Shown here: in pieces, positions 297 to 58,264 of the stretch
How the letters are laid out: each line of letters begins with the position of its first letter
How positions within the stretch are numbered: position 1 is the first letter of the stretch
Assembly (NCBI GenBank): GCA_026415655.1
Contig: JAOAGR010000004.1
Coordinates: 67,236-131,235 of the forward strand
DNA length: 64,000 nt
Origin: Candidatus Dojkabacteria bacterium
GTDB taxonomy: Bacteria; Patescibacteriota; Dojkabacteria; JAOAGR01
Direction: 5' to 3'
The notes under the pieces: model-generated
Seen by the model: the letters and a program-made list of their open reading frames with translations, nothing else
What the model was told of the DNA's origin: nothing
Database searches by the model: none
Translations under genes and position numbers: made by a program

Positions 297-641
297 TTAA
301 AATATGTCGAAATCAAATATATCATCTAAAAATCCGTCTTTTTTCTTTTGGTGGGGTGGATGATTGTGGGGGTATTGTTGATTGCCTTGATAGTTTTGTC
401 GATAAGATTCATGATCGTCGTCATCGTCATTGTAATAGTGATGGTTTTGAGATGTTGGAGATGAAGAGAATGGTACGTTATTATTCATTCTGATACCATT
501 TATTTCATCTCTGTAAGCTTGTAAAATCTTTTCTATTTCACCCTTATCTAAGACCACAGTCCCACAATTTGGACAATAATCTATTATGATATCGTATTTT
601 TCTACCTGTCTTAGATCACTTCCGCATTTTGGACATTTCAT
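297..641 (-). CDS. Zinc-ribbon protein (zf-TFIIB-like, CPKCG...CPNCG) with an Asp/His/Gln-rich low-complexity C-terminal tail.
   Basis: Two CxxC pairs in the first 30 aa (MKCPKCGSDLRQVEKYDIIIDYCPNCGTVVLDKGEIEKIL). The tail includes DDDDDHESYRQ...HNHPPHQ. Confidence 0.6.
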   Translation of the reverse strand: MKCPKCGSDLRQVEKYDIIIDYCPNCGTVVLDKGEIEKILQAYRDEINGIRMNNNVPFSSSPTSQNHHYYNDDDDDHESYRQNYQGNQQYPHNHPPHQKKKDGFLDDIFDFDIF

Positions 642-4034: not shown

Positions 4035-4372
4035 AAATTGTTCTAATTTAATTTTTATTTTAAAAGTCTTGTGATACATTATAAAGATTTTATGCTGTTG
4101 TTAAATTAACTCTTTATATATATTTTGTAAAAGAGATAGTTTTTTTATTGATTTACCCTACACTTATATATATGATTGATTCATTCATAGTTTATATGTT
4201 GTTAATATTTTTGTTAGTTTTTTAAATTGTAGTAGAGGATTTTTTTATATATAAATAAAAAAGTATATATATGTACTAAATTTTTTATTGGGCAAATGAG
4301 TAAGTAAAATTTTTTTAAGTTATAATAAATTTCATAATTTGAAATTCATTATAGTATCATATATATTAAAGA

Positions 4373-5128
4373 GTGGGTCTTTTTAAGTTCTTATATTGGT
4401 TATTTTATATATTTCCGATTATTTTAGCTTTTATTTTCACTTGGCCAGTGTCTGATGGACAGTCTATCATTTTTCATTTTTATCCGATGAGCGGTATCAC
4501 AATTCTTCCTTTTTCATCTCTTGTTATTTGGATAAATCTTCTCTTATCTAAGATTCTTTATAATCTTAATGTTGAAAATTATAAAGATTATATAAAATAT
4601 TTTATCTTTTCACCCCTACTCACGAATATTTTTATCATTATTTTTCCTGTTTTGGGATTTGATAACAAAATCTGGTTAACAACGATTCTAATAAATTTAT
4701 TATTGATAGCTATTTTTAGCCTAATTTATATTTTGCTATATCTTCGTGGATTAAAACAATACATCGGCGGTACTTTATTCACAATTTATATTATGTTATT
4801 TGTATTTTTTTTCACATTTATATCTATGGACTACGTCATAGTTATTTTCTTCGAATGGAGTTACTTTATAGTTCTTTTAGTTTTAGTTTTTTATTTAGCC
4901 TATGTTATGGATAATAAGTTGCCTCTAGTGTTATTGATTTTATATATTATATTTTATTTATTATTGATTATAAGTTCGCTTGGTTCAAATTTTGATTATG
5001 AGTTGCTTAATTTTCCACGTAAGATCTTAGTTGGGATTTTGATTATTTTATATATTCAAACTATTCTTTTATGCAATATTAAAAATATGGTTATGATGAT
5101 AATTAATTATATAATTTCAGGTGCATAG
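4373..5128 (+). CDS. Hypothetical polytopic membrane protein, paralog A of the 5620..6546 product.
   Basis: 251 aa. Shares blocks with its neighbour: YKDYIKYFIFSPLLTN / YYDITRFFVFSVLLTN, TTILINLLLIAIFSLIYIL / TMIIINMLLISMFYICYIVL, and EWSYFIVLLVLVFYLA / EWILVITFSALIFFLA. Confidence 0.55.
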   Translation: MGLFKFLYWLFYIFPIILAFIFTWPVSDGQSIIFHFYPMSGITILPFSSLVIWINLLLSKILYNLNVENYKDYIKYFIFSPLLTNIFIIIFPVLGFDNKIWLTTILINLLLIAIFSLIYILLYLRGLKQYIGGTLFTIYIMLFVFFFTFISMDYVIVIFFEWSYFIVLLVLVFYLAYVMDNKLPLVLLILYIIFYLLLIISSLGSNFDYELLNFPRKILVGILIILYIQTILLCNIKNMVMMIINYIISGA

Positions 5129-5619
5129 TATATTATTTCTTTTTTGATTACTTCAATCTTAATTGCGTCAAAACCTGATCCTAATTTTATGATGGCAGTA
5201 GGAATGATGTTGGCACATTTATTTCCAGTACTGGTAATTATTTTTTAATATTTTTAGTGCATTTTAATCTTGTATATTGGTACTCTAAAAAGTAGATAAA
5301 AATAATGATTCAAGTCTATCATATATGATTTTAACTGTTCTGACAAGGAATACATATTTTGTTTAATAAATATTACTTAATAGATAATTTAGCTTTTATT
5401 ATTTAGATACTCTTCTATATTTTAGGATATGTTGCTTAAATTTCTGATCTCAAGTTAATAGTTAAAATATTAAAAAGTTTTTTGTTGTATTAATAATATC
5501 TATTTTGATTATTTGTTTTATTGTTATAAAACATATCTTAACTTTGAAAAATAGTTGATGGTACTAGAAAATGTCTATTAATTTCAAATTTAGATTAGAT
5601 TTGGTAACATAAATATGTT

Positions 5620-6546
5620 ATGAGGTTGTTAAAACTATATTACTTTTTGTTTCTTATATTTGTTTTGTTTTTGGGATTTGTTTCAAGTGATAATTTGGAG
5701 CTAATTCATAAAAATGAATATTTTATCTTTAACTTTCCTACTAATAACGTTTTTGTAACTTTAATTCCCATATTAAAATCTCTATTTGTAGTTAATCTTA
5801 TATCGTCCTTAATACTGTTTAAAAGATCTAAAGAAAAATATTATGATATAACGAGATTTTTTGTTTTTTCTGTATTATTGACTAATCCATTATTTCTGTT
5901 TACAAACCATAAGTATGTGCTGACTATGATAATAATTAATATGCTTTTAATATCCATGTTTTATATTTGTTATATTGTGTTAGATACACTACATATAGAT
6001 TATAAACTGGGTTTAATTATGTTTATCATATTTTTACTGTTACTAGTTTCTTCTTCCATATTGATTTTTATAGATTACAATTTAGTAAATCATTTAGAGT
6101 GGATATTGGTTATTACATTTAGTGCTTTAATTTTCTTTCTTGCGTTATTCACAAAAAATTATATAACTTTGTTATGTTTATCTGTAGGTCTATTGATCAA
6201 GATAATAAGTTATGTATTGTTGAATATTCAGAATTTATCTGTGGATAGGTTTTTTATACAATTTCCTGACTTTTATTTCTATGATATTGTTCTAATTTCA
6301 ATGATTGGTTTCTTTTTTACATTTAACCAATCTCAAGTAAAAGTGTTAAGATCAATTAATGATATTATTGCAGGTTTAGCATATTCTATTGTTGCTGCAG
6401 TAATTTCAGTATATTTTTTAGTCAGTTTAGACAGATCTCATGCGTTTGTTATTTTTATGTTACCAATATTATTTGTATTTGTGACAGTATTTGATTACTT
6501 TTTATTTTTATATTCTAGTGTCTTATATTTATTAGATGATAAATAA
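5620..6546 (+). CDS. Hypothetical polytopic membrane protein, paralog B of the 4373..5128 product.
   Basis: 308 aa. Collinear similarity to ORF 4373..5128 (see that entry). Confidence 0.55.
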   Translation: MRLLKLYYFLFLIFVLFLGFVSSDNLELIHKNEYFIFNFPTNNVFVTLIPILKSLFVVNLISSLILFKRSKEKYYDITRFFVFSVLLTNPLFLFTNHKYVLTMIIINMLLISMFYICYIVLDTLHIDYKLGLIMFIIFLLLLVSSSILIFIDYNLVNHLEWILVITFSALIFFLALFTKNYITLLCLSVGLLIKIISYVLLNIQNLSVDRFFIQFPDFYFYDIVLISMIGFFFTFNQSQVKVLRSINDIIAGLAYSIVAAVISVYFLVSLDRSHAFVIFMLPILFVFVTVFDYFLFLYSSVLYLLDDK

Positions 6547-7066
6547 TCATTATTTTGTTTGGCAATAAAATGATGAATATATTTTCAGACATTAATTGAA
6601 TATGAATATGCGAATATTAATGAATATAAAATCGTATTTGTATAATGATTTAGTTCTATTCTGATATTAGTACACTTTTAAATTATAAAAAAATAAAATT
6701 ACAAGTTTATTGACAATTAATAAAGTAAGAATTTATCATTGAACATTAATTTTTTCATTTTACTTTCGGAGTGGCATTTGGGTAGAATCCTTTATTCTGG
6801 AATGTTGTATACCATATCTTGAAGATTGACATTTATGAGAAGTATTCTCAATTATTTTATATTAGTAATTATTAGGTTAATAATTTTTATTTATACTTTA
6901 ATATTAATGATTCCTTTTATCCTGATAAAAACTTAAAACTAATTATAAAAATAAATTTTTACTCAAATAAGCGTTTTCAAAAGACTGAAAGAATATTATA
7001 AATATTTTATTTTACTTAAAAGAAATAATTATTATTTTTTAATTCTTTGCCGTAAGAGTTTAAAAA

Positions 7067-7110
7067 TGGAGCAGGGAAACCGGAATCGAACTGGTGCTTG
7101 TCCTTCTTAA
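7067..7110 (-). pseudogene. Orphan tRNA 3' half (T-arm plus acceptor 3' strand plus CCA). It has no 5' half, so it is a tRNA remnant or an att-site remnant.
   Basis: Minus-strand reading ...CACCAGTTCGATTCCGGTTTCCCTGCTCCA. Near-identical T-arm to the tRNA-Gly 520 bp away, but a different acceptor stem. No matching 5' acceptor (GCAGGGAA) was found. Confidence 0.4.
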
Positions 7111-7632
7111 CTATTTTTATTTTGATTCAAACTGAATAACTTGAAATCCATGTTTGTCTAATTGTTCTGAAAACCAAAAGTTAAGTCTTTGTTTTTGAGT
7201 ACGTAATTAACAGCAACTTCAATTTTTCTTCCTGTGTATGTTTTTATCGTTATTCCATTCTTCCAAAATCAAGGCGTCAGCATCGTTTATTTCAAAATTA
7301 GCAAGATGCAGTTCAAGTTTTTTATGTCGGACATCATTTTCTCAAAATATCCTGACCATCCTTTTTGAGAACTGACTCCATATTTAGGCTATATTTAGAT
7401 GATTAGATTATTTGTGCTTAATAGTCTATTTATAATTTTTAATTTTCATTATAGTTTGCAGGAAGCTACCTAATTCATCTCGTGAGCAGTATTGATTTGC
7501 ATATAACAAAATGTTACTGCACTGTCATGTTTTTTATTTTTTATCAGAGATAATTGTTTAAATCTTATCGTATTTCTAAGTTAGGATATAGCCATTCCCA
7601 AAATGATCATACAACCTCAAAAACTTTTATTG

Positions 7633-7706
7633 TGGAGCGGGTAACCGGAATCGAACCGGTGACTTATCCTTGGGAAGGACACGTTTTACCCCTAAACTAT
7701 ACCCGC
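7633..7706 (-). tRNA. tRNA-Gly, anticodon CCC, CCA encoded.
   Basis: Manual fold: GCGGGTA-TA-GTTT-AGGGGTA-AAAC-G-TGTCC-TTCCCAA-GGATA-AGTC-ACCGG-TTCGATT-CCGGT-TACCCGC-T-CCA. All stems pair, and the total is 74 nt. Confidence 0.85.
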
Positions 7707-7820: not shown

Positions 7821-9056
7821 CTATATAAGGGTAAACATACCGTCCTTATAAATTATCCTTTCACTGCCATCTTTGAGTGTCGCTGTTACTGTACGATTTG
7901 ATGTACTAATTATATCTGTATGTATTGCAGATTCATTGAATCCCATGTTATTTATGAGTTCTTCATCACTGAATTTTTCTTGATCTTTTATTGCATCTCT
8001 ATAAGCCTGACCGAGTGCTATATGAGTATTTCCATATTCACCACCGAAATTTTCATCAAATAAAGTATTTGCCATTATTCGATCTATACGGGAGAACCTT
8101 TTGTCTGTTAAGCTGAACTCGCCTACTCGTCTAGCGCCTTCATCTGTATTTAACATTGCTTCTAATGCATGTTTATTTGTTTCAGCATCAAAATCTATGA
8201 CTTTTCCATCCTCAAAAACTAATTTTATACCTTTAATAATAAATCCATCTCTGTAGAGTGGTTGATTAAATCTGATCCAACCATTTGTATATCTAGCATC
8301 AGGTGATGTAAATATTTCAAAACTAGGTAAATTTCGACCACTTCCTCCGACGAATTGTCTGTTTTCACCTAATACTATTTCCAAATCAACATCATCGGCT
8401 TTTATATGTAATTTTTCTATATTAAATGAATTAATAGTACTTGTTATTTGATGAATTTTGCTGAATGTATCTTTATGCTTTGTAATTGGGTCGTCCTCGT
8501 CAAGATAACAGGCTTTTATGACTTGATCCCAATATTCTTCTAGAGTCATACCAGCTGCTTCTGCCATAGCTGGAGTTGGATAATCTGTAAGAACCCATGT
8601 TAGTTTGCCAGCATATTCTTTGGCATTACGCATTTCCATGTATTTTCTCCAGACTTTGGTTCTTTGTGCAAGTTTTTTTGGATCTATGTCGGCATAATAA
8701 TTGTGATCATGGGTAGATAAAAGAAGTACTACATGATCTATAGTATCAATTCTTGCCTGTATATATTTTTCAGGAAAAAAGTTAAGTTGCTCTTCGTTTG
8801 CTAGTTCGTAAAAAAGTGCAGTCTCATCCCTGTCTCTTTGTAATTCTGCTGGTAGATAACACAAAATCATATGCCCCCCAGATCGTAATATTGCTTCTTG
8901 AATGGGTAATAACATAGGTTTAGCATATTCATTCATCATGACGTAAACTACTTCGCCAGGTTTTATTCCTTCGCCAGAATTAAGGCAAAAATTTATTAGG
9001 GTATTTGCGAAATTTTTTAATATTTTTTCACTTGGAGTATATAGATTTGAAAACAT
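7821..9056 (-). CDS. M29-family aminopeptidase (AmpS/PepS/aminopeptidase T-like).
   Basis: Blocks match thermophilic aminopeptidase T: KLTWVLTDYPTPAMAEAAGMTL, MLNTDEGARRVGEFSLTD, and NTLFDENFGGEYGNTHIALG. Confidence 0.85.
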   Translation of the reverse strand: MFSNLYTPSEKILKNFANTLINFCLNSGEGIKPGEVVYVMMNEYAKPMLLPIQEAILRSGGHMILCYLPAELQRDRDETALFYELANEEQLNFFPEKYIQARIDTIDHVVLLLSTHDHNYYADIDPKKLAQRTKVWRKYMEMRNAKEYAGKLTWVLTDYPTPAMAEAAGMTLEEYWDQVIKACYLDEDDPITKHKDTFSKIHQITSTINSFNIEKLHIKADDVDLEIVLGENRQFVGGSGRNLPSFEIFTSPDARYTNGWIRFNQPLYRDGFIIKGIKLVFEDGKVIDFDAETNKHALEAMLNTDEGARRVGEFSLTDKRFSRIDRIMANTLFDENFGGEYGNTHIALGQAYRDAIKDQEKFSDEELINNMGFNESAIHTDIISTSNRTVTATLKDGSERIIYKDGMFTLI

Positions 9057-9100
9057 AATTTAATTATTCTATCAATTTTGTGGGATTAATCAATATAAGA

Positions 9101-9119
9101 ACATACTTGACAAGTATGT
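9101..9119. promoter_or_regulatory. Perfect 9-1-9 palindrome ACATACTTG-A-CAAGTATGT overlapping a TTGACA hexamer. It lies in the divergent intergenic region between the M29 aminopeptidase gene and the COG0523 gene, and is a candidate metalloregulator (Zur/Fur-family) operator.
   Basis: Read directly from the sequence. Its position upstream of a COG0523 zinc-chaperone-type gene fits known Zur regulon architecture. Confidence 0.4.
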
Positions 9120-9149
9120 TATGATGGAAAAAGATAATTTATTGTAGAT

Positions 9150-10277
9150 ATGGATAATCAAAATAAAAGTATTCCAATAATAATACTTACTGGATTCTTA
9201 GGTAGCGGAAAAACCACTCTTCTTAACAAGATCATCGAAAAATACAAGGATGAATACAAAATAGCAGTTGTAATGAATGAGTTTGGAGATGTAGCTATAG
9301 ATTCAGAATTGATTTCTTCATCAGTAGGTGATGAAGAGATTTGGACAGTTGATGGGGGTTGCATCTGTTGTGTTGTTAGAGGGGATTTAATAAAAGGTGT
9401 ACAAAATCTAGTTGAAAAAGCAAATCCTGATATAATATTTATTGAAACATCCGGTCTTGCTGATCCATATCCTGTTGCACAAACATTTTTTGTGGATAAT
9501 CTAAATGGAAGAGTTTATCTGGATAGTATTGTGTGTTTGATAGATGCTAATAATTTTAATGTATATTCAAAAGAATTTGAGATAGCATATAAACAAATAT
9601 ATGTATCTTCTTTTTTGATTATTAACAAAATTAAAAATTTGCCACAAAAAAAATTAGATGAATTGCATGAGATTGTTAAAGAGATAAACAAAGACGCCTA
9701 TATTATTGATGATATTGAAAATATTGATTTAAATATATTTATAGATCAGAGTAATATCTCTTTTGTTGATTTGTTAAAGCAGGAGAAAATACAAAATGAT
9801 ATTAACCTTGATGATAAATTAAATTCTTCTAATGTGAAACAAGAGGAATCTTGTCACGGACATTGTAGCTGTAATTGTGACCATGATTGTGATCATAAAC
9901 ATGAAGAATGTAAGTGTTGCAACTCAAAAGATTCTGATTGTCACCACCATGAGGAGGATGATCATGTACATCCACATACGCATGAGGACGTAGATCAATA
10001 TGTATTTACAACAGAAAAGCTAATAGACATCCAAAAATTTGCTGAATGGATAAAGGAAAGTTTGCCAAGGAATGTCTATAGAGCAAAAGGGTTTCTGTGT
10101 ACAAATGAAAAACCCTACAAGTATTTCTTGCTTCAAGTTGTTGGTGGATCAAAGGATATTTATGCCATCATGCCAAGTCGGGAGAATTTTGATTACAAAA
10201 GAAGTAGATTAGTTTTCATAGGAAAAGATTTAGACAAAGATTATTTGGAAAGAAGCCTGAAACAGGTACTGTTATAA
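9150..10277 (+). CDS. COG0523/CobW-family metal-chaperone GTPase (ZigA/YciC/YeiR-like) with a long Cys/His-rich insertion.
   Basis: P-loop GFLGSGKTTLLN, the CxCC metal motif (GGCICCVV), and switch ETSGLADP. Insertion CHGHCSCNCDHDCDHKHEECKCCNSKDSDCHHHEEDDHVHPHTHE. Confidence 0.8.
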   Translation: MDNQNKSIPIIILTGFLGSGKTTLLNKIIEKYKDEYKIAVVMNEFGDVAIDSELISSSVGDEEIWTVDGGCICCVVRGDLIKGVQNLVEKANPDIIFIETSGLADPYPVAQTFFVDNLNGRVYLDSIVCLIDANNFNVYSKEFEIAYKQIYVSSFLIINKIKNLPQKKLDELHEIVKEINKDAYIIDDIENIDLNIFIDQSNISFVDLLKQEKIQNDINLDDKLNSSNVKQEESCHGHCSCNCDHDCDHKHEECKCCNSKDSDCHHHEEDDHVHPHTHEDVDQYVFTTEKLIDIQKFAEWIKESLPRNVYRAKGFLCTNEKPYKYFLLQVVGGSKDIYAIMPSRENFDYKRSRLVFIGKDLDKDYLERSLKQVLL

Positions 10278-10284
10278 TCAAAAT

Positions 10285-11355
10285 ATGAAAATTGCCGTAG
10301 CCTTGTCAGGAGGAGTGGATAGTGCTGTAACGGCTTATATTTTAAAATCACAAGGACATGATGTTATTGGTATATTCATGAAAAATTGGTCTGATGATTA
10401 TGGACTAAAAGGCGATTGTCCTTGGGAAAAGGATCAAAATGATGCAATGCAAGTTTGTGAATTTTTGCAGATTCCCTTTTATACTTTTAATTTTGAAAGA
10501 GAATATAGAGAAAGAGTTATTAATTATTTTTTTGAAGAATATAAAAATGGGCGTACTCCAAATCCTGATGTGTTCTGTAATTCTGAGATCAAATTTGATT
10601 TATTTCTAAGGAAATCTATTGAAAGGTTCGATGTGGACAAGATTGCTACTGGGCATTATGCCCGTGTTATTGATCAAAAAGAATATTTTGCATTGTTTAG
10701 AGGAGATGATTTATCAAAAGATCAATCTTATTTTTTGTGTAGACTTACACAAAATGAACTTTCAAAATCGATTTTTCCGTTGGGCGAAATGACAAAGAAG
10801 GAAGTACGTAAGATAGCATCAGATATAGGATTACCTGTTGCAACCAAGAAAGATAGTCAAGGAATATGTTTTGTTGGAAAAATAAATGTAAGAGAGTTTT
10901 TACGTAGTGAGCTAGGAATGAAAGATGGTGATATTGTTGATATAGAAACGAATAAGATTCTTGGCCGACATCATGGATTGTGGTTTTATACAATAGGACA
11001 ACGCGAAGGACTTGGGCTTGGAGGAGGACCTTGGTATGTAGTAAAAAAAGATTTGGATTCCAATATTGTTTTTGTTGCTAGAGGAAGAAATAATCCATTT
11101 TTATATAAAGATTTTGTGATTGTAGAGGATCTAATATGGACTTATGAAAAAAATGTAAATAAACTTGATAATTTAGATAACTTGTCTATTACTTTAAGAT
11201 ATCAACAAAGCCCAATACGTTGTATTTCTTATGAATGGAAAGATAAAGATTTAGTTTTGCATCTAGAAAACAAAGCATTTGCTGTTTCACCCGGACAAGT
11301 AGGATGTCTTATGTCTGGTGATGAGGTTATTGGTAGTGGTATTATTAAAGCTTAA
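10285..11355 (+). CDS. mnmA: tRNA 2-thiouridine(34) synthase MnmA.
   Basis: PP-loop N-terminus MKIAVALSGGVDSAV. C-terminal PGQ..V.Y.GDEVIGSGII is typical of MnmA/TrmU. Confidence 0.9.
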   Translation: MKIAVALSGGVDSAVTAYILKSQGHDVIGIFMKNWSDDYGLKGDCPWEKDQNDAMQVCEFLQIPFYTFNFEREYRERVINYFFEEYKNGRTPNPDVFCNSEIKFDLFLRKSIERFDVDKIATGHYARVIDQKEYFALFRGDDLSKDQSYFLCRLTQNELSKSIFPLGEMTKKEVRKIASDIGLPVATKKDSQGICFVGKINVREFLRSELGMKDGDIVDIETNKILGRHHGLWFYTIGQREGLGLGGGPWYVVKKDLDSNIVFVARGRNNPFLYKDFVIVEDLIWTYEKNVNKLDNLDNLSITLRYQQSPIRCISYEWKDKDLVLHLENKAFAVSPGQVGCLMSGDEVIGSGIIKA

Positions 11356-12369: not shown

Positions 12370-12416
12370 GATGTTTTTATTAGGCTTAACTTATTATATA
12401 CTCATGAATAGTAACT

Positions 12417-14322: not shown

Positions 14323-17300
14323 GTGAGTTCAAGAAGAATAAATCTTTCATATGATGATAAGAAGAAGGTATTTTTACCTTTCTTCGGACTTGTGCTTATA
14401 TTATTGCTTTTTATTACTGCTTTTATAACCTTATTATTCATACAAAACAATAGTCTAAATAACGAATTTGAGGCTGCGGGTAATGTAATTAGGATTGATT
14501 CCTCTCAAAGTTTGCAAAGAGTTATTCAAGATGCAGGGGATTCGGATGCGATTGTATTGAAATCAGGTTCATATTCTATCCCTCAGAACGGTATTTTAAT
14601 TCAGAATAAAAAATTAAGGATAATTGGAAGTGGAGCAGAAAATACTGTGATTACTGCCAATGGTTCAACTAGCGCATTTATTATAAAAAATGCTAATGTT
14701 GAAATTAGCAATCTGAAAATCACAGGTACACAAGGTCCAGCAATCAATATTGATAATACCGTTGATGGAAGTAGAACTTTTGATGATAATCCATTAAAAG
14801 TTCGTATATTAAATACTCATATTACAAATTCACAAGATGTTGCTTTACAGATTTCTGGTATAGTCGAAGTATCGGAATCAAAGATTGATAAGACTAAAGG
14901 AGCTATAAAATTAGTGAGAGGAGCTATTAATTTAAATAACACTGTTATTTATGATTCGGTAGACTATGGAATAGAATTGAATTCCGAAACACAATCAATA
15001 GAATCCACCGTAATTAATGCGATTATTGCCAGATCTGCCAAAGAAGCGATTTTGGTCAAATCAGGTAATGTTCAGATAAAAAATGTAACGATTGTTGACA
15101 ACGGTGATGGAATAGTAGAATCAGGGCAGGTCTCTTCTGTTAATGTTAAAAACACAACTGTACAGGGTAATAAAGGTAAAGGAATCAGTATCAAAAGCCC
15201 AAGATCAACCGTTACATATAGTAATTCTTTTCAAAACAGAACTAACTATGAGCCTCAGACACTAGCAACTGGTTCTGCTAATAATAATCTATCTGTAGAC
15301 TCTGGATTCATTTCATCAAATCAATACCAATTACAAACTAATTCGGCTATTCGTGACAAAGGGGATCCTTCAGAGAAAGACAAGATCGATGGTACTAGGA
15401 TAGATATTGGTGCATTTGGTGGTGATCCCAAGCTTAGATTTGCTAACTCATTTCCTATAGTTAGTTCACCTAGGGAAGTTTTTATCAGGCCGGGCGCGAG
15501 TCTTGATTATACAATAAATGCTACAGATCCTGACGGTGATAAACTAGAGTATCGTATTTTAAATAATAAATATCCTGATTGGATAAAATTAAATGAAAAT
15601 AAGATCTCCGGTACTGCGCCGCGGAATCAAGATATTGTTGGACTTTTGATCTTGGTTACCGACGGTAAAGGTGGAAATATAGTTCATCCACTTACAATCA
15701 ATATCAATAGTGGGTATAATCCACAACCTCAGCCCACTCTTACTTCAACGCCACGTCCTACAACCACAAATGTTCCGACTCAACCTAGTATAACATCGAC
15801 ACCTGTACCTACTGTAACACCGTCACCAAAACCTATACCAGAGATAAGACTTACAGTTACATCACCAAAATCAAATACAAAGTTTGACAAAAAAAACAAT
15901 GAAATCAGATGGGAAATTATTTCTGGCGCAGATGATATCGACAAAATAACTGTTGAATATTCTCAAGATGGCATAAATTATACTCCCATTACTACCCTAC
16001 CAGCTGACGCTAGAAAGTACCAGTGGGATTTCGTAAATGATGAGAAAATTGTAGATGGTAAATATTTCATCAGAGTCACAGCATTTGCTAAGGCTCCTAA
16101 TGCCGATATAAAAGCTAGTGCTGTTTCTGACCAATTTGAACTAACAAAACAGGAAGAGAAAAAACTTAAGATATTACAAGTATCACCAGCTGAGAATAAT
16201 ACTGTAGAAAATAGACGAGAACGTATATTTATAGAGTTTGAGTCTTCATCACAAGTATCCCGTGAAGATAGTTATATCAAGATAAATGATATTGAGTTTA
16301 AATTTACTAACATTACACAAAATAGCGCAGTATTTGATCCTGTTTCTGATTATGCAGGTAATACTGTAAAAGTTGAAGTAAAGCTTATCAATCGTGACGG
16401 AGATATTGCTCAGAGGGTATGGACATTCAATATCAAGGTTACGGCTTCACCTAATCCAACAAATCCTGATGTTATAAGGCAAGCAACTATATTTGGTATA
16501 GATAGGAATATAGCCTTGATTGTATTAGGTTTCATCATAGTTATCATAATGATTGTTGTTGGTTATTATTTTGTGAAGTTTATTAAATCAATTAGGGATC
16601 AAAGGCAAGGTAACCTTGAGAATGAATTTAATGAATATGATGTTCCCGCTGGAGTAACGACACTACAACAGGGTTATAACGTACCAACACAAGAAATGAA
16701 TGCAGCTAGTCAAGCTCTATCTTCTATGATGCCAGATCAGACGTTGTATAATCAGTACACTAATCCCAATCCATATTTACAGCAAGGTTATTCTACTCAA
16801 ATTGATCAAAATCAAATCGGTCAAAATCAAAATTTGCAATCGAATTTTGATGTGACACAAAATGGTCAGCAGAATGAAACACCTCAAACATTCACAAATC
16901 AAAATCTATATGTCACAGCACAAAATGTGCCTAATCAGTTACAAAGTAATGATGGATATACTAACAGTGGGTTGCAAGCATTCAATGTTGATTCTTCAAC
17001 ATTTTCCAACGAAATGAGTTCGGTAAATCAAAACACCGGTCAAACCTATAGTACTGATACTAATACTACTAGTTACGGTTTATTACAACAAAATCAAACT
17101 CAACCTGATAATAATTTGGGCTATACGATAAACAACTATCCAAATCAACAAACAACTGATTCTATGACATTTTCTAATACTAGTACTATACAGGGAAGTT
17201 CATTACAGGATCAATATAATAACACAAATCAGATGCAGAGTGATATGTCTTTAAATAATCAATCTAATCAAACATCGCAACCCGATCAGAATCAACAGAT

Positions 17301-17634
17301 GAGTTATTATCATTCAGATGCGGATTTTGTAGATGAGATGAAACAAAAATATGGTGTTCCTGTAGATACGAGTCAGATTGATAGCTTTGTAAATAATCAA
17401 TCCATAACAAATACAACTGGTGATATACAAAATCAAAACAGTAGTATTCAGTATTCGGATAATCAAACAAATGTTGGATTAACAAATGATGCTAACTTGA
17501 CGCAGACTCAAGCTACGATACAAACTAGTAGTGATGAAGATTATTTGACCCAATTGAAAGCAAAGTATGGAATAACAGATGATGATATACAGAAGTATAA
17601 TGCAAATAAAAATAATCTAACACCACAGAGTTAG
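14323..17634 (+). CDS. Large (1103-aa) surface protein. Domain order: signal/anchor, right-handed parallel beta-helix repeats, dystroglycan-type cadherin-like (He_PIG) domain, PT-rich linker, Ig-like domain, a single TM helix, and a roughly 350-aa Q/N/T/S-rich low-complexity cytoplasmic tail.
   Basis: Beta-helix style repeats (NTHITNSQDVALQISG...). PT linker PQPQPTLTSTPRPTTTNVPTQPSITSTPVPTVTPSPKP. TM segment IALIVLGFIIVIIMIVVGYYF followed by the QNQ-rich tail. Confidence 0.7.
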   Translation: MSSRRINLSYDDKKKVFLPFFGLVLILLLFITAFITLLFIQNNSLNNEFEAAGNVIRIDSSQSLQRVIQDAGDSDAIVLKSGSYSIPQNGILIQNKKLRIIGSGAENTVITANGSTSAFIIKNANVEISNLKITGTQGPAINIDNTVDGSRTFDDNPLKVRILNTHITNSQDVALQISGIVEVSESKIDKTKGAIKLVRGAINLNNTVIYDSVDYGIELNSETQSIESTVINAIIARSAKEAILVKSGNVQIKNVTIVDNGDGIVESGQVSSVNVKNTTVQGNKGKGISIKSPRSTVTYSNSFQNRTNYEPQTLATGSANNNLSVDSGFISSNQYQLQTNSAIRDKGDPSEKDKIDGTRIDIGAFGGDPKLRFANSFPIVSSPREVFIRPGASLDYTINATDPDGDKLEYRILNNKYPDWIKLNENKISGTAPRNQDIVGLLILVTDGKGGNIVHPLTININSGYNPQPQPTLTSTPRPTTTNVPTQPSITSTPVPTVTPSPKPIPEIRLTVTSPKSNTKFDKKNNEIRWEIISGADDIDKITVEYSQDGINYTPITTLPADARKYQWDFVNDEKIVDGKYFIRVTAFAKAPNADIKASAVSDQFELTKQEEKKLKILQVSPAENNTVENRRERIFIEFESSSQVSREDSYIKINDIEFKFTNITQNSAVFDPVSDYAGNTVKVEVKLINRDGDIAQRVWTFNIKVTASPNPTNPDVIRQATIFGIDRNIALIVLGFIIVIIMIVVGYYFVKFIKSIRDQRQGNLENEFNEYDVPAGVTTLQQGYNVPTQEMNAASQALSSMMPDQTLYNQYTNPNPYLQQGYSTQIDQNQIGQNQNLQSNFDVTQNGQQNETPQTFTNQNLYVTAQNVPNQLQSNDGYTNSGLQAFNVDSSTFSNEMSSVNQNTGQTYSTDTNTTSYGLLQQNQTQPDNNLGYTINNYPNQQTTDSMTFSNTSTIQGSSLQDQYNNTNQMQSDMSLNNQSNQTSQPDQNQQMSYYHSDADFVDEMKQKYGVPVDTSQIDSFVNNQSITNTTGDIQNQNSSIQYSDNQTNVGLTNDANLTQTQATIQTSSDEDYLTQLKAKYGITDDDIQKYNANKNNLTPQS

Positions 17635-36583: not shown

Positions 36584-36676
36584 GGAGAGATACCCAAGTG
36601 GCTGAAGGGGCGGGTTTGCTAAACCTGTAGTAGGGGGAAACCCCTAGCGAGGGTTCGAATCCCTCTCTCTCCGCCA
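36584..36676 (+). tRNA. tRNA-Ser, anticodon GCT, long variable arm, CCA encoded.
   Basis: Manual fold: GGAGAGA-TA-CCC-AAGTGGCTGAA-GGG-G-CGGGT-TTGCTAA-ACCTG-[TAGTAGGGGGAAACCCCTAGC]-GAGGG-TTCGAAT-CCCTC-TCTCTCC-G-CCA. Confidence 0.85.
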
Positions 36677-38113
36677 ATCGGAACGGGCTTTGTTTTGAGC
36701 GAGTATGTCAAAGGGTTCGATCCAGTCCCAATGCAGTTTTTTATCCATCAAAACAAAGTTCGAGCCGACAATATTCAAGAGTAACTTCCTATCCATACTA
36801 TCCCCTTCACTGAATGCCCAGAATGCCTGATTAGCGACAATTATCAGTCCTTCAAAATGTTCGACCCATTTGTTTTCGGCTTTTCTACATTCCTCCAGAT
36901 TTTCGACAGCTACTAATTCATCATTTTCAATTTCAATTCTTTTTTCTTCAAAAAGTACATCATCAATTTTCTGATCAGTAAAAAGATCTACAAGTTTACG
37001 TTTTCGTTCTTGGAGTTTTCTACGTTCATTCGTCCAGTATTCCAGAGTATGAGCATGAAGATCATATTCATTTTTATTACTTTCTTTCAAAGTTCTAAGC
37101 ATTAAATCTCTAACTTCATCATCTATGGAAATACTGTCTAGTGTGTCCTGAATTTGTTTCTCCAGATCTTCAGCTCTGATGTATTTTTGCTTACATGTCC
37201 CTTTCTTTTTTGTGCACCGATAATAAGTATGTCCTTTTTGATTCTCTGCAGTAATAGCACAGCCACATTCTCCACAGGTTAAAAGACCAGTGTATGCAAA
37301 ATCTTTTTTCTCTTTTTTGAACTCATCGGGCTTTCCATTGCTTTTGATAACTTTCTGAATTTGTAAAAATGTTCCCATGCTTATCATTCTGTGGTGGTTT
37401 CCTGGATATCTCTTACCGTTATAAACCATAATTCCTGCATAAAAAGGATTTGTAAGTATTCTTTGAACCGAACTTTTTGATAATTGTTTCCCTCGAATTC
37501 CTACTAATCCCCAGCTCTTTGCTAAATCAGATATCTCTTGAAGAGTATATTTCCCTAAAGCATATGTATCAAAAATTCTTTTAACCAGATCAAACTTTTC
37601 CGGATCTGGAAGTATCTTTTTATTTACAACATCGTTTTTGTATCCTAGCAATGCCCAAGTAGGCCATTCACCATTACGGAGTTTTTCTCTAATTCCTCTT
37701 TTAACGTTTTGACTCAGATTATCAACATAATACTTAGATTGGTTAAACGCCATTCCAAGAGTGAATTTTCCTTGAGGAGTATTGTCAGCCCAGTAAGTTG
37801 GAAATTTTAACTCTTTTAAAAGTCCCACGTCCATCAAGTAAATAATTTTACCTCCATCGACAGAATTTCTAGCGAGCCTGTCTGGATGCCATGCAATTAT
37901 TCCATCTGCTTCACCTTTTTCTATCGCCAAAAGCATACTATTAAAAATCTCCCTACCTGGTTCTTTTGCTGTTTTAGACTCATGGAGAATTTTATGGACA
38001 ATCAGCTTATTCGTTTTGGCATATTCAATTAGCTCAGTTTCCTGAGCTTTAATAGACTGGATTTGCCGATTGTCTTCGTCAGTAGATTTTCTGCAATAGA
38101 TAAAGTATTTCAT
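36644..38113 (-). CDS. Large serine recombinase (integrase): resolvase catalytic domain, recombinase domain, zinc ribbon and coiled coil.
   Basis: Catalytic-domain motifs AIYCRKSTDEDNRQ..SIKAQ and DGIIAWHPDRLARN. Zinc ribbon CGECGCAI...YYRCTKKKGTC. The 3' end overlaps tRNA-Ser by 33 nt. Confidence 0.85.
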   Translation of the reverse strand: MKYFIYCRKSTDEDNRQIQSIKAQETELIEYAKTNKLIVHKILHESKTAKEPGREIFNSMLLAIEKGEADGIIAWHPDRLARNSVDGGKIIYLMDVGLLKELKFPTYWADNTPQGKFTLGMAFNQSKYYVDNLSQNVKRGIREKLRNGEWPTWALLGYKNDVVNKKILPDPEKFDLVKRIFDTYALGKYTLQEISDLAKSWGLVGIRGKQLSKSSVQRILTNPFYAGIMVYNGKRYPGNHHRMISMGTFLQIQKVIKSNGKPDEFKKEKKDFAYTGLLTCGECGCAITAENQKGHTYYRCTKKKGTCKQKYIRAEDLEKQIQDTLDSISIDDEVRDLMLRTLKESNKNEYDLHAHTLEYWTNERRKLQERKRKLVDLFTDQKIDDVLFEEKRIEIENDELVAVENLEECRKAENKWVEHFEGLIIVANQAFWAFSEGDSMDRKLLLNIVGSNFVLMDKKLHWDWIEPFDILAQNKARSDWRRERDSNPR

Positions 38114-38115
38114 GT

Positions 38116-38763
38116 TTAGAAATAATCCTGAATAGTAATTTTTTTAATCATCTTCCCTACGACACGGAAATTTGGATCATTCACTTTAATAGGTTTGAAG
38201 TCCTCATTCGCTGGTTCAAGAATTACATAGTCACCTTTGCGAAAAAAGAATTTTAATGTTGCATTGCCGTCAAGCATAGCGACAACAATATCTTTATTAT
38301 TAACAATTGCGTGCGGATCAATCAGAATATAGTCACCGGGAAGTATTCCGGCATCTTTCATTGAAAGCCCGTCTGCCTGTAAGGCAAAGAGGTCTTTTTT
38401 CTTTGCAAGTCTCTCGTCATATGGGAGAGGAATAAACTTTTCGGATTTCTCGATTGCCTCTTTTGGCGTTCCGCACGGAACTTCTCCAAGTAGTGGAATC
38501 CTCATCATATTCATGAAAATATTATGCTCTTGTATCCCCATCTCCATCAGAGCAGCTTTCTGTTTTAGTTTTAAAAGCTCTTCCAGGTCTATTTCAAGAG
38601 CAGGAGCAAGTCTTTCAAGTGTTTCATCTTCAGGAAAAACCTTTCCGCTTTCAATATCAGAAATGTAGCCATTATTTTTCATTCCAAGTCTTCTTGCGAT
38701 TTCGGATTGGGAAAACCCTCTATTCAGACGTATTTCTTTAAATAAATCTCCAAATGTACTCAT
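38116..38763 (-). CDS. LexA/CI-like repressor: XRE-type HTH plus S24 autopeptidase domain.
   Basis: HTH segment FSQSEIARRLGMKNNGYISDIESGK. S24 motifs GLSMKDAGILPGDYILIDP (Ser) and GNATLKFF (Lys). Confidence 0.8.
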   Translation of the reverse strand: MSTFGDLFKEIRLNRGFSQSEIARRLGMKNNGYISDIESGKVFPEDETLERLAPALEIDLEELLKLKQKAALMEMGIQEHNIFMNMMRIPLLGEVPCGTPKEAIEKSEKFIPLPYDERLAKKKDLFALQADGLSMKDAGILPGDYILIDPHAIVNNKDIVVAMLDGNATLKFFFRKGDYVILEPANEDFKPIKVNDPNFRVVGKMIKKITIQDYF

Positions 38764-57673: not shown

Positions 57674-57946
57674 ATGATGAAACACAAAGAATCCAGTCAA
57701 AAAGAAAAATCAATCCTTGCATCTAAAAAAGCTGCAGGTACAGTAAAGAAAATTATAGAAATGCTTGAAGAAGATCGGTATTGCATTGATATTATTCAAC
57801 AGATTGATGGAGCCATCGGGCTCTTAAAAAGTGCAAGAAATCAAATCCTAGATGATCATTTTGATCATTGTTTGCTTGAAAAAATTCAAGAAGATAAGGA
57901 AAAAACTTTGGATGAACTAAAAAAGGTTTATAGAATAAGTAACTAA
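57674..57946 (+). CDS. csoR: CsoR/RcnR/FrmR-family metal-sensing transcriptional repressor (Cu-type C-H-C ligands).
   Basis: EDRYCIDIIQQIDGAIGLLKSARNQILDDHFDHCL. The conserved Cys, His and Cys align with CsoR. Confidence 0.8.
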   Translation: MMKHKESSQKEKSILASKKAAGTVKKIIEMLEEDRYCIDIIQQIDGAIGLLKSARNQILDDHFDHCLLEKIQEDKEKTLDELKKVYRISN

Positions 57947-57957
57947 TGTGAATTGTT

Positions 57958-57990
57958 AAGTCAACGAAATTAAGGCGTTGACTTTTTTTA
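57958..57990 (+). terminator. Rho-independent terminator after csoR: a 9-bp perfect stem AAGTCAACG / CGTTGACTT, a 9-nt loop, and a T7 tract.
   Basis: Read directly: aagtcaacgaaattaaggcgttgacttttttt. Confidence 0.7.
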
Positions 57991-58024
57991 GATATGTTAT
58001 AACATATACCCCACGTACACGTTA
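57978..58024 (+). promoter_or_regulatory. TTGACT -35 hexamer (inside the terminator's descending stem) and the operator-like motif ACGTACACGTTA upstream of copZ.
   Basis: TTGACT at 57978-57983. The 12-mer at 58013-58024 is identical to the reverse complement of 57154-57165. Confidence 0.35.
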
Positions 58025-58036
58025 GATCAAAAACAT

Positions 58037-58264
58037 ATGAATAATTACAAAATACAAATCAAAGGAATGCATTGCAACGGATGCAAAAATTTAATTCAAA
58101 TGTCGCTGGAGGATGAGAGTCTGCAGAATGTTTCTGTAAATCCAGAGACAGGATATGCGAACTTTAATACCGATTTATCAGAGGAAGATACCGCAAAAGT
58201 ATTAGAAAAGGTATTTGCAGAACTTTCTGACTATTCTTATTCAAATTTAGAAAAGGTGGATTAA
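58037..58264 (+). CDS. copZ: HMA-domain copper chaperone CopZ-like.
   Basis: The GMHCNGC (MxCxxC) motif in a 75-aa protein. Confidence 0.8.
   Translation: MNNYKIQIKGMHCNGCKNLIQMSLEDESLQNVSVNPETGYANFNTDLSEEDTAKVLEKVFAELSDYSYSNLEKVD

Follow-up and report, generated by a model that had tools for sequence, protein, structure and literature searches.

The window analysed here is a 64,000-nt stretch of contig JAOAGR010000004.1 (positions 67,236 to 131,235 of the forward strand) from a Candidatus Dojkabacteria bacterium, with a GC content of 32%. It carries a gene for a metallochaperone-type nucleoside triphosphatase (NTPase) of the COG0523 family, separated by a 93-bp spacer from a divergent gene for an M29 aminopeptidase, and this spacer contains a perfect palindrome; the gene and the palindrome are the subject of this work. 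Two sister lineages, L001/L002 (Logan assemblies) and L015/L016 (GCA_964503755.1), made up the comparison set together with the window (the three lineages below); they were the only further lineages with orthologues, their proteins being 77-78% identical to the window protein. The gene order M29, COG0523, mnmA, miaA and recA, with M29 divergent and miaA on the minus strand, is common to both sister lineages. Protein comparisons were drawn from the best 120 matches to the window protein. In window coordinates, the features of the locus are as follows.

7821-9056, minus strand: gene for an M29 (AmpS/PepS-type) metallo-aminopeptidase (Pfam Peptidase_M29, 4e-97), divergent from the COG0523 gene.
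9066-9093, minus strand: predicted M29 promoter, TTGATT-16 nt-TAGAAT with a TG upstream, from a consensus scan; its elements are conserved in relatives.
9095-9127, no strand: constrained 33-nt block around the palindrome, variable among the three lineages at 9099, 9104, 9106 and 9116 only.
9100-9120, no strand: perfect 10-1-10 palindrome of 21 bp, AACATACTTG-A-CAAGTATGTT, which may serve a dimeric repressor as operator.
9107-9112, plus strand: TTGACA, a hexamer resembling a -35 box, which occupies the centre of the palindrome and does not vary among the three lineages.
9117-9125, plus strand: TGTTATGAT, an extended -10-like element (TGnTATGAT) overlapping the right arm, invariant in the three lineages, with a predicted start near 9132.
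9133-9138, plus strand: GATAAT, a second -10-like candidate, which follows TTGACA by 20 nt and precedes the ATG by 12 nt, with a predicted start near 9145; relatives do not keep it.
9150-10277, plus strand: gene for the COG0523-family (G3E P-loop) metallochaperone-type NTPase, 375 aa, with Pfam cobW and CobW_C.
9192-9218, plus strand: Walker A/P-loop GFLGSGKTT (residues 15-23), invariant in the alignments and aligning to the P-loop of Escherichia coli YjiA.
9357-9371, plus strand: GCICC (CxCC) metal-binding motif (residues 70-74), with G70, C71, C73 and C74 invariant.
9624-9635, plus strand: NKIK, a degenerate G4 motif replacing NKxD (residues 159-162), aligned to TKTD of YjiA.
9852-9986, plus strand: Cys/His-rich linker (residues 235-279, 45 aa) with 9 Cys and 12 His, as read from the sequence.
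10270-10278, plus strand: TGTTATAAT, a consensus extended -10 overlapping the COG0523 stop codon, 6 nt before the mnmA ATG.
10285-11355, plus strand: mnmA, for tRNA 2-thiouridine(34) synthase (NCBIfam NF001138, an equivalog model, 414 bits against a cutoff of 284).

In NCBI, an entry with the same protein sequence bears the name "GTP-binding protein [Candidatus Dojkabacteria bacterium]". The assignment of the window protein to COG0523, made in the first-pass annotation together with the CxCC metal motif, was borne out by matches to Pfam cobW (7e-53, residues 9-186) and CobW_C (PF07683; 3e-18, residues 283-374), the latter domain being folded in the AlphaFold2 model, and by GCICC at residues 70-74. 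The CxCC motif, which defines the COG0523 family (Haas 2009, PMC2770081), stands at this position in all of the best 120 matches and has the form GC[IVML]CC in 119 of them. A Glu in Walker B and an intact NKxD are listed as G3E hallmarks (PMC2770081). The former is present in the window protein (IFIETSG, ExxG, with E99 and G102 invariant), and the latter is replaced by NKIK, with NKIR and NKIS in the sister lineages. Among the best 120 matches, 96 have [N/S]KxD, and the Asp is absent in all 17 closest relatives. Because these 17 proteins lack the guanine-specificity Asp of NKxD, their clade probably has a relaxed or changed nucleotide specificity. Matches to NCBIfam equivalogs covered the N-terminal domain only and stayed below the cutoffs for ZigA (139 bits vs 600), CobW (143 vs 332) and the YjiA type (130 vs 361). 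The window protein is a member of a small clade which, by the sole lineage-specific name available, is apparently centred on the Candidate Phyla Radiation (CPR). The earlier annotation of the protein is correct, and the protein is somewhat more interesting than was claimed.

The sole solved COG0523 structure found by sequence was that of E. coli YjiA (PDB 1NIJ/4IXM; phmmer 2e-28, residues 8-201). The two proteins share the two-domain architecture, the P-loop, the Walker B Glu and the CxCC in the switch region, whereas they differ in G4 (TKTD in YjiA, NKIK here) and in the Cys/His-rich linker, which YjiA does not have; their C-terminal domains align weakly. The first-pass annotation had described this 45-aa segment as an insertion. 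Its richness in Cys and His stands, but "linker" is the better term, because about 40% of COG0523 proteins carry a His-stretch at this position (Haas 2009, PMC2770081). The linker contains a second CxCC (residues 254-257), which is CKCC in the window protein and CKCC or CECC among the three lineages, and 6 Cys and 7 His of the linker are invariant in these lineages; an HxHxH directly before the C-terminal domain is nearly invariant throughout the family. At least seven linker Cys were found in only 4 of the best 120 matches, namely the four closest (P0001-P0004), and at least eight His in 42. As judged from these sequences, Cys-richness is its sole unusual trait. A COG0523 relative of 41% identity (L007) likewise has a Cys-rich linker. 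AlphaFold2, run with an alignment of 15 sequences, gave two folded domains with a predicted local distance difference test score (pLDDT) below 50 over the joining residues 211-277, and the linker is probably disordered in the metal-free state. Low-complexity segments rich in metal ligands are likewise present in His-stretch COG0523, CobW, HypB and UreG proteins and in the His/Cys-rich C-terminal tail of SlyD, and on G3E NTPases and chaperones such segments are thought to store or deliver metal (Haas 2009, PMC2770081). Unlike the His-stretch proteins, the window linker is rich in Cys as well as in His, with CxC, CC and the second CxCC.

The palindrome had been described as a perfect 19-bp palindrome at 9101-9119, lying over a TTGACA box in the spacer shared with the M29 gene. 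The spacer, the box and the position agree with what was found here; the length does not, since the 19-bp ACATACTTG-A-CAAGTATGT at 9101-9119 is the core of a perfect palindrome of 21 bp (9100-9120), and an imperfect dyad reaches 9095-9125 (15-1-15, 87% complementary). The 64 kb contained five perfect palindromes whose arms measured 10 nt or more, against 1.28 +/- 1.22 in first-order Markov simulations; the one at 9100-9120 is the sole intergenic case, the other four lying inside coding regions. The expected number of such palindromes is 0.13 for the intergenic DNA as a whole (6.5 kb) and 0.002 for the 93-bp spacer. A different perfect palindrome (7-1-7, TTTGCAATTTGCAAA) was noticed at positions 632-646 of L007, about 20 nt upstream of a TATAAT box.

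Comparison of the window with L001 at 4-fold degenerate sites of M29, mnmA and recA gave 49% identity, and the whole spacer was 73% identical, with variable sequence on either side of the 33-nt block. The sequences corresponding to the palindrome are AACATAGTTGACAAGTGTGTT (L001) and AACACAGTTGACAAGTATGTT (L015), with 19 of the 21 bases kept in each. Two of the three substitutions inside the palindrome (9104 T->C and 9116 A->G) occurred in different lineages at mirror-image positions and amount to the same half-site change, giving a half-site consensus of AACAYASTTG. A dimer site with a single degenerate position would be expected to show this pattern, but the evidence is weak, the chance of such mirror positions with three substitutions being about 0.1-0.15 by our own estimate. 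The conserved 33-nt block exceeds the length needed by two promoter hexamers.

The promoter elements at the spacer are predicted from consensus. By these predictions the palindrome lies just upstream of the M29 -35, at about -41 to -61 of the M29 promoter, and the dyad would overlap the COG0523 core promoter under either of the two -10 candidates; the core promoter is where repressors bind. Shine-Dalgarno sequences are almost absent from this genome and TGnTAnnnT stands 12-18 nt before many starts (e.g. 9066-9074, 10270-10278, and upstream of 19047 and 20560), which suggests that its mRNAs are mostly leaderless or have very short leaders. Regarding the translational start, both sister lineages have an ATGATG in the reading frame of the gene, 27 and 33 nt ahead of its ATG, at which gene callers start; the family alignment favours the downstream ATG as the true start. 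It was also noticed that in the window the same ATGATG, at 9121 and inside the conserved block, opens an ORF (open reading frame) of 8 codons (MMEKDNLL*, 9121-9147) that ends 2 nt before the COG0523 ATG.

Taken together, we read the locus as a gene for a COG0523 metallochaperone-type NTPase with a reservoir-like linker, over whose core promoter the dyad serves as an operator, and we give this reading a probability of roughly 0.55. That the dyad is a repressor operator of whatever kind, the Zur and Rrf2 variants discussed below counted in, we hold to be slightly on the probable side. Several observations weigh against our reading of the locus: 1) no candidate regulator gene adjoins the dyad, 2) both sister lineages keep 8 of the 10 arm pairs, so that the perfect symmetry is lost, 3) the flanks TTAATCAATATAA and TGTTATGATG are conserved at least as well as the palindrome, the former holding the -35 of the M29 promoter, 4) no true second copy was found at up to 5 mismatches in the window and about 100 kb of related Dojkabacteria loci, 5) the consensus scan found no -10 hexamer 16-18 nt downstream of TTGACA, so that the COG0523 transcription start is placed tentatively, 6) COG0523 homologues at 41% identity or less (L007-L010) have neither the synteny nor the dyad, and 7) the putative metal binding and function of the linker are deduced solely from its composition. 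As to further copies, which the first-pass annotation had proposed to seek, the window has no other copy of the palindrome when up to 3 mismatches are allowed; the block in which it lies is conserved in the two sister lineages. The search at up to 5 mismatches across all loci returned two coding-region matches only, the relaxed motif ATASYYGNCRRSTAT at up to 2 mismatches gave 6 matches against 5.2 expected, and string searches of the literature for the palindrome motif returned nothing relevant.

The palindrome might instead not be a regulator site at all, the block being promoter DNA and the symmetry a by-product of the self-complementary TTGACAA core and chance. The loss of two arm pairs in the sister lineages, the equal conservation of the flanks and the single copy would fit such an origin, and so would the four perfect palindromes with 10-nt arms inside coding regions of the window. 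In addition, the substitution 9116 A->G, just upstream of TGTTATGAT, preserves TRTG, a motif of Gram-positive promoters, and the 19-21-mer recurs at TTGACA -35 boxes of unrelated phage and bacterial promoters, in about as many families as expected by chance according to a rough estimate of our own. However, the expected counts given above are low for the intergenic DNA and lower still for the spacer, the constrained block includes AACA-A (9100-9105), which no promoter element explains, and the substitutions fall at mirror positions. TTGACA is also poorly explained as a working -35, since it lies 7 nt and 20 nt from the two candidate -10s. On balance, incidental symmetry appears rather unlikely, though it deserves serious attention.

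The first-pass annotation had gone further and regarded the locus as a zinc-starvation-responsive unit, on the ground that COG0523 genes are classic Zur targets. Under such an explanation, a COG0523 (or COG0523-mnmA) unit would be repressed by Zur and induced by zinc starvation, and the palindrome would be a lineage-specific Zur box. Zur indeed controls many COG0523 genes, and its boxes overlap the -35/-10 region (PMC2770081, PMC8000910); the odd-spaced architecture of the dyad and its overlap with the promoter are compatible with this, and since Zur motifs vary between phyla, a CPR-specific motif is conceivable. Symmetrised matrices were built from Additional file 5 of Haas 2009 (14 Bacilli, 15 alpha-, 8 beta- and 40 gamma-proteobacterial and 11 cyanobacterial sites), and the whole window was scored with them. 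The 23-mer centred on the palindrome scored -38 to -44 bits with the five taxon-specific matrices, whereas the weakest training sites scored +9.6 to +21.9; the best score within the spacer was +3.0 bits, for a lone half-site-like ATGTTAT at 9116-9122 (+2 to +3). No Fur-family gene came up when the window's listed ORFs of 90-230 aa were compared with Pfam, nor was one found in the related loci, and a six-frame tblastn search of the window with an E. coli Fur sequence as query gave a best E value of 4.6, with no Fur-like match. The search for a Fur/Zur homologue that had been proposed thus found none within the 64 kb. The window was likewise found to have no znuABC and no zinc-independent paralogues such as folE2 or C- ribosomal proteins, the neighbours being M29, mnmA, miaA and recA. 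At least 15 subgroups are distinguished within COG0523 (Haas et al. 2009, PMC2770081), and because only some of these are Zur-linked, membership in the family alone does not imply control by Zur. The window protein belongs to the same family as ZigA of Acinetobacter baumannii, ZagA/YciC of Bacillus subtilis and eukaryotic ZNG1, and it has the same CxCC; unlike the Zur-regulated ZigA and ZagA/YciC, its gene has no Zur box, its score is far from the ZigA equivalog cutoff (139 vs 600 bits) and its G4 Asp is lost. With neither a Zur-box match, nor a Fur-family gene, nor neighbours for zinc uptake or sparing in the 64 kb, the Zur link is unsupported, and we consider it improbable. The site of the archaeal DtxR-like ZntR, TTTGG-N8-CCAAA (Haas 2009, Additional file 8), was also compared by eye with the dyad and showed no resemblance.

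The regulators encoded in the window, i.e. a CsoR-like repressor, an XRE-S24 repressor and an HTH_36 protein, are all within an apparent mobile element (see below). The XRE-S24 repressor (38116-38763) was set aside, as it belongs to that element. A Zn-ribbon protein (PF13453; 114 aa, 297-641, minus strand) with a His/Asp-rich tail is encoded near the locus in all three lineages, and its gene adjoins that of a P-type cation ATPase in relatives; as a regulator it was dropped, having no recognisable DNA-binding domain.

As a special case of the operator reading, the dyad could be the site of an Rrf2-family (CymR/IscR-like) regulator, by which COG0523-mnmA would be tied to cysteine, sulfur or Fe-S status and not to zinc. 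A search of Joint Genome Institute (JGI) metagenome contigs for AACAYASTTGACAAGTRTGTT gave 12 loci. In four of these (L019, L021, L024 and L023, from two lineages with GC contents of 31% and 50%), the exact 21-mer is the core of a 27-29-bp perfect palindrome centred on the -35 of a canonical promoter, TTGACA-17 nt-TATCAT/TATTAT/TATGAT, that precedes cysK (TIGR01139, 456 bits). These palindromes, (T)ATAAACATACTTGACAAGTATGTTTAT(A), are located at 11710 of L019, 11236 of L021, 5293 of L024 and 1775 of L023, and may represent an undescribed cysteine-regulon operator. L023 also encodes, 1.3 kb upstream of its palindrome, an Rrf2 protein with a C-x8-C-x5-C motif; the presence of a TetR-family gene nearby weakens the assignment. 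Further support comes from known systems, in which 1) the Rrf2 gene cymR adjoins cysK in Clostridia (PMC3828012), 2) cymR adjoins yrvO in Bacillus cereus (PMC3519770), 3) YrvO is the dedicated sulfur donor of MnmA in B. subtilis (PMC13066941), and 4) Rrf2 sites are dyads of 23-29 bp (PMC9338935). The size of the window dyad is compatible with these, and its outer half-sites, ATACTTG/CAAGTAT, fit ATASYYG/CRRSTAT, the IscR type-1 consensus.

The metagenomic cysK operators, which are Firmicutes-like, thus have a central 21 bp identical to the window dyad and are likewise centred on TTGACA; they differ from it in being 27-29 bp rather than 21 bp long, in having a properly spaced -10 (17 nt) and in controlling cysK, there too under a regulator that is a candidate only, and the window dyad does not have the outer symmetric positions of the cysK operator. 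The half-sites are also 10 bp closer together than in IscR type-1 sites, and in-register identity to the IscR and NsrR consensus is poor. Except for that of L023, no Rrf2 gene was found in the window or the fetched loci. The other metagenome families comprised a cyanobacterial repeat end, L022/L027 and L028, most of the matches being TTGACA -35 boxes; L022/L027 have 26 of 28 nt in common with the window and ORFs that were uninformative. A scan of viral contigs gave about five families, all of them ordinary TTGACA -35 boxes. Of all these matches, the cysK promoters alone looked meaningful. Since about 3-6 exact matches are expected by chance in a collection of this size (a rough estimate of our own) and four to five independent families were found, the cysK match may be a coincidence. 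The CymR box of B. subtilis, TAAWNCN2ANTWNAN3ATMGGAATTW, gave no alignment with the dyad. An Rrf2 or cysteine-linked regulator is therefore a weak lead, and we regard it as improbable.

That the dyad acts as an RNA or chromosome element, i.e. a hairpin in the 5' untranslated region, a terminator or a dif/Xer-type site, is most improbable. The window hairpin folds to -7.5 kcal/mol (z = -2.7), but it is not conserved, the values in the sister lineages being -3.8 (z = -0.3) and -1.9 kcal/mol (z = +0.7), and neither a T-run nor a terminator-like site was found at the dyad. Its arms resemble those of dif sites, which have the form CATAA...TTATG; against this, the GC skew is positive throughout the region, which argues against both a terminus and a dif site here. 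Two further types of site were tried and rejected. A MerR-type promoter was dismissed, as the dyad is centred on the -35 and not inside a 19-20-bp spacer, and the GATAAT of the 20-bp TTGACA...GATAAT spacing is not conserved; a LexA/SOS box was dismissed, as no similar dyad lies upstream of recA at 12370-12416.

In the mechanism that we propose, metal would be bound at the CxCC of the NTPase domain, and the linker, with its second CxCC and about 20 thiol and imidazole ligands, might serve in a metallothionein-like manner as a multi-ion reservoir or as a hand-over arm. Nucleotide hydrolysis would then drive release of the metal to a client. A dimeric repressor encoded outside the window would bind the 21-bp dyad and block RNA polymerase, and because the dyad is predicted to lie just upstream of the M29 -35, the bound repressor may also affect the divergent M29 gene. 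By analogy, the M29 enzyme is an attractive candidate for the metal client, as ZNG1 serves methionine aminopeptidase; this is inference only, and it is opposed by the narrow spread of the divergent M29-COG0523 pairing, which occurs only in the three close lineages. On four M29-bearing contigs of 64-75% identity (two named Dojkabacteria), no COG0523 gene was found (0/4), and an M20-M29 arrangement was present in three. When contigs of species-representative genomes were searched with the COG0523 protein, the sole match was an Anaerobacillus gene, 26% identical.

A more far-reaching version, which we think decidedly improbable, would make the protein a nucleotide-gated (perhaps not GTP-gated) multi-ion thiolate store or chaperone, with its promoter controlled, through the dyad shared with cysK, by an Rrf2-type regulator that senses cysteine, sulfur or Fe-S and not by a metal sensor. 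If true, production of a metal buffer rich in thiols would be coupled to sulfur supply, as perhaps would tRNA thiolation, in an organism whose regulatory repertoire is minimal.

Whether mnmA belongs to the same unit was considered as well, since co-transcription had been proposed from its position directly downstream. Its start lies 7 nt after the COG0523 stop, a gap that is invariant in the three lineages, and no terminator-like site was found between the two genes; both the adjacency and the lack of a terminator agree with that proposal. On the other side, mnmA likely has its own promoter, of the leaderless type, at TGTTATAAT, whose -10 is conserved as TGTTATA[A/G]T in the three lineages and positioned like other promoters of this genome. 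Because of this predicted extended -10, mnmA would not depend on read-through; co-transcription by read-through is possible, and mnmA need not belong to a regulated unit. The motif DVFC in the cluster/catalytic region of mnmA, as read from the sequence, places the product in the D-type, as opposed to the C-type, of MnmA, the two types being defined in PMC13066941. It was also noticed that mnmA and miaA, on the plus and minus strands, are convergent, with their 3' ends overlapping by 69 nt (11287-11355).

Elsewhere in the window, a 3.5-kb segment of low GC content (0.24) at 4092-7632 carries two ORFs for multi-pass membrane proteins without Pfam match and ends at a tRNA-Gly (7633-7706). In an assembly from the European Nucleotide Archive (ENA; L003) that is otherwise 99-100% identical, about 300 nt stand in its place, and the segment appears to be a strain-variable islet adjoining a tRNA gene. 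An ORF at 14323-17634 (1103 aa) has a long low-complexity tail rich in Q, N and T. The region 36584-64000 adjoins a tRNA-Ser, has a GC content of 0.34-0.37 against about 0.30, and from its gene content looks like an integrated mobile element with copper-resistance cargo. It contains genes for a serine recombinase (36644-38113), the XRE-S24 repressor (38116-38763), a type IV secretion system (T4SS) pilin, a relaxase and a sortase, together with two P1B-type ATPases, a cupredoxin, the CsoR-like repressor (57674-57946), a CopZ-like ORF with a heavy-metal-associated (HMA) domain (about 58038-58263), DUF305 and DsbD_2. Upstream of the CopZ-like ORF, at 57979-58020, TTGACT...ATATGTTATAACATAT (an 8-0-8 palindrome) is followed by ATACCCCACGTACA, and the related TGTACGTCCCATATAGG lies upstream of the cupredoxin gene. 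Within the window, the 57979-58020 site alone exceeded the training minimum of a Zur matrix (13.2 bits with the gamma matrix); more likely it is part of the copper unit's promoter or of a CsoR operator.

For annotation, these results mean that the combination of a COG0523 gene and a palindrome should be recorded as Zur-regulated only where a motif match or a Zur gene backs it. Among the G3E metallochaperones, COG0523 proteins are those least understood, and both metal homeostasis and the control of transcription are almost uncharted in the CPR. If the reading proposed here is confirmed, a clade that has lost the NKxD Asp and whose closest members carry a Cys-rich linker with a duplicated CxCC would provide a test case for the roles of the linker and of nucleotide specificity in metal transfer, and a conserved single-copy dyad over a CPR promoter would give a handle on one of the few regulators in these reduced genomes.

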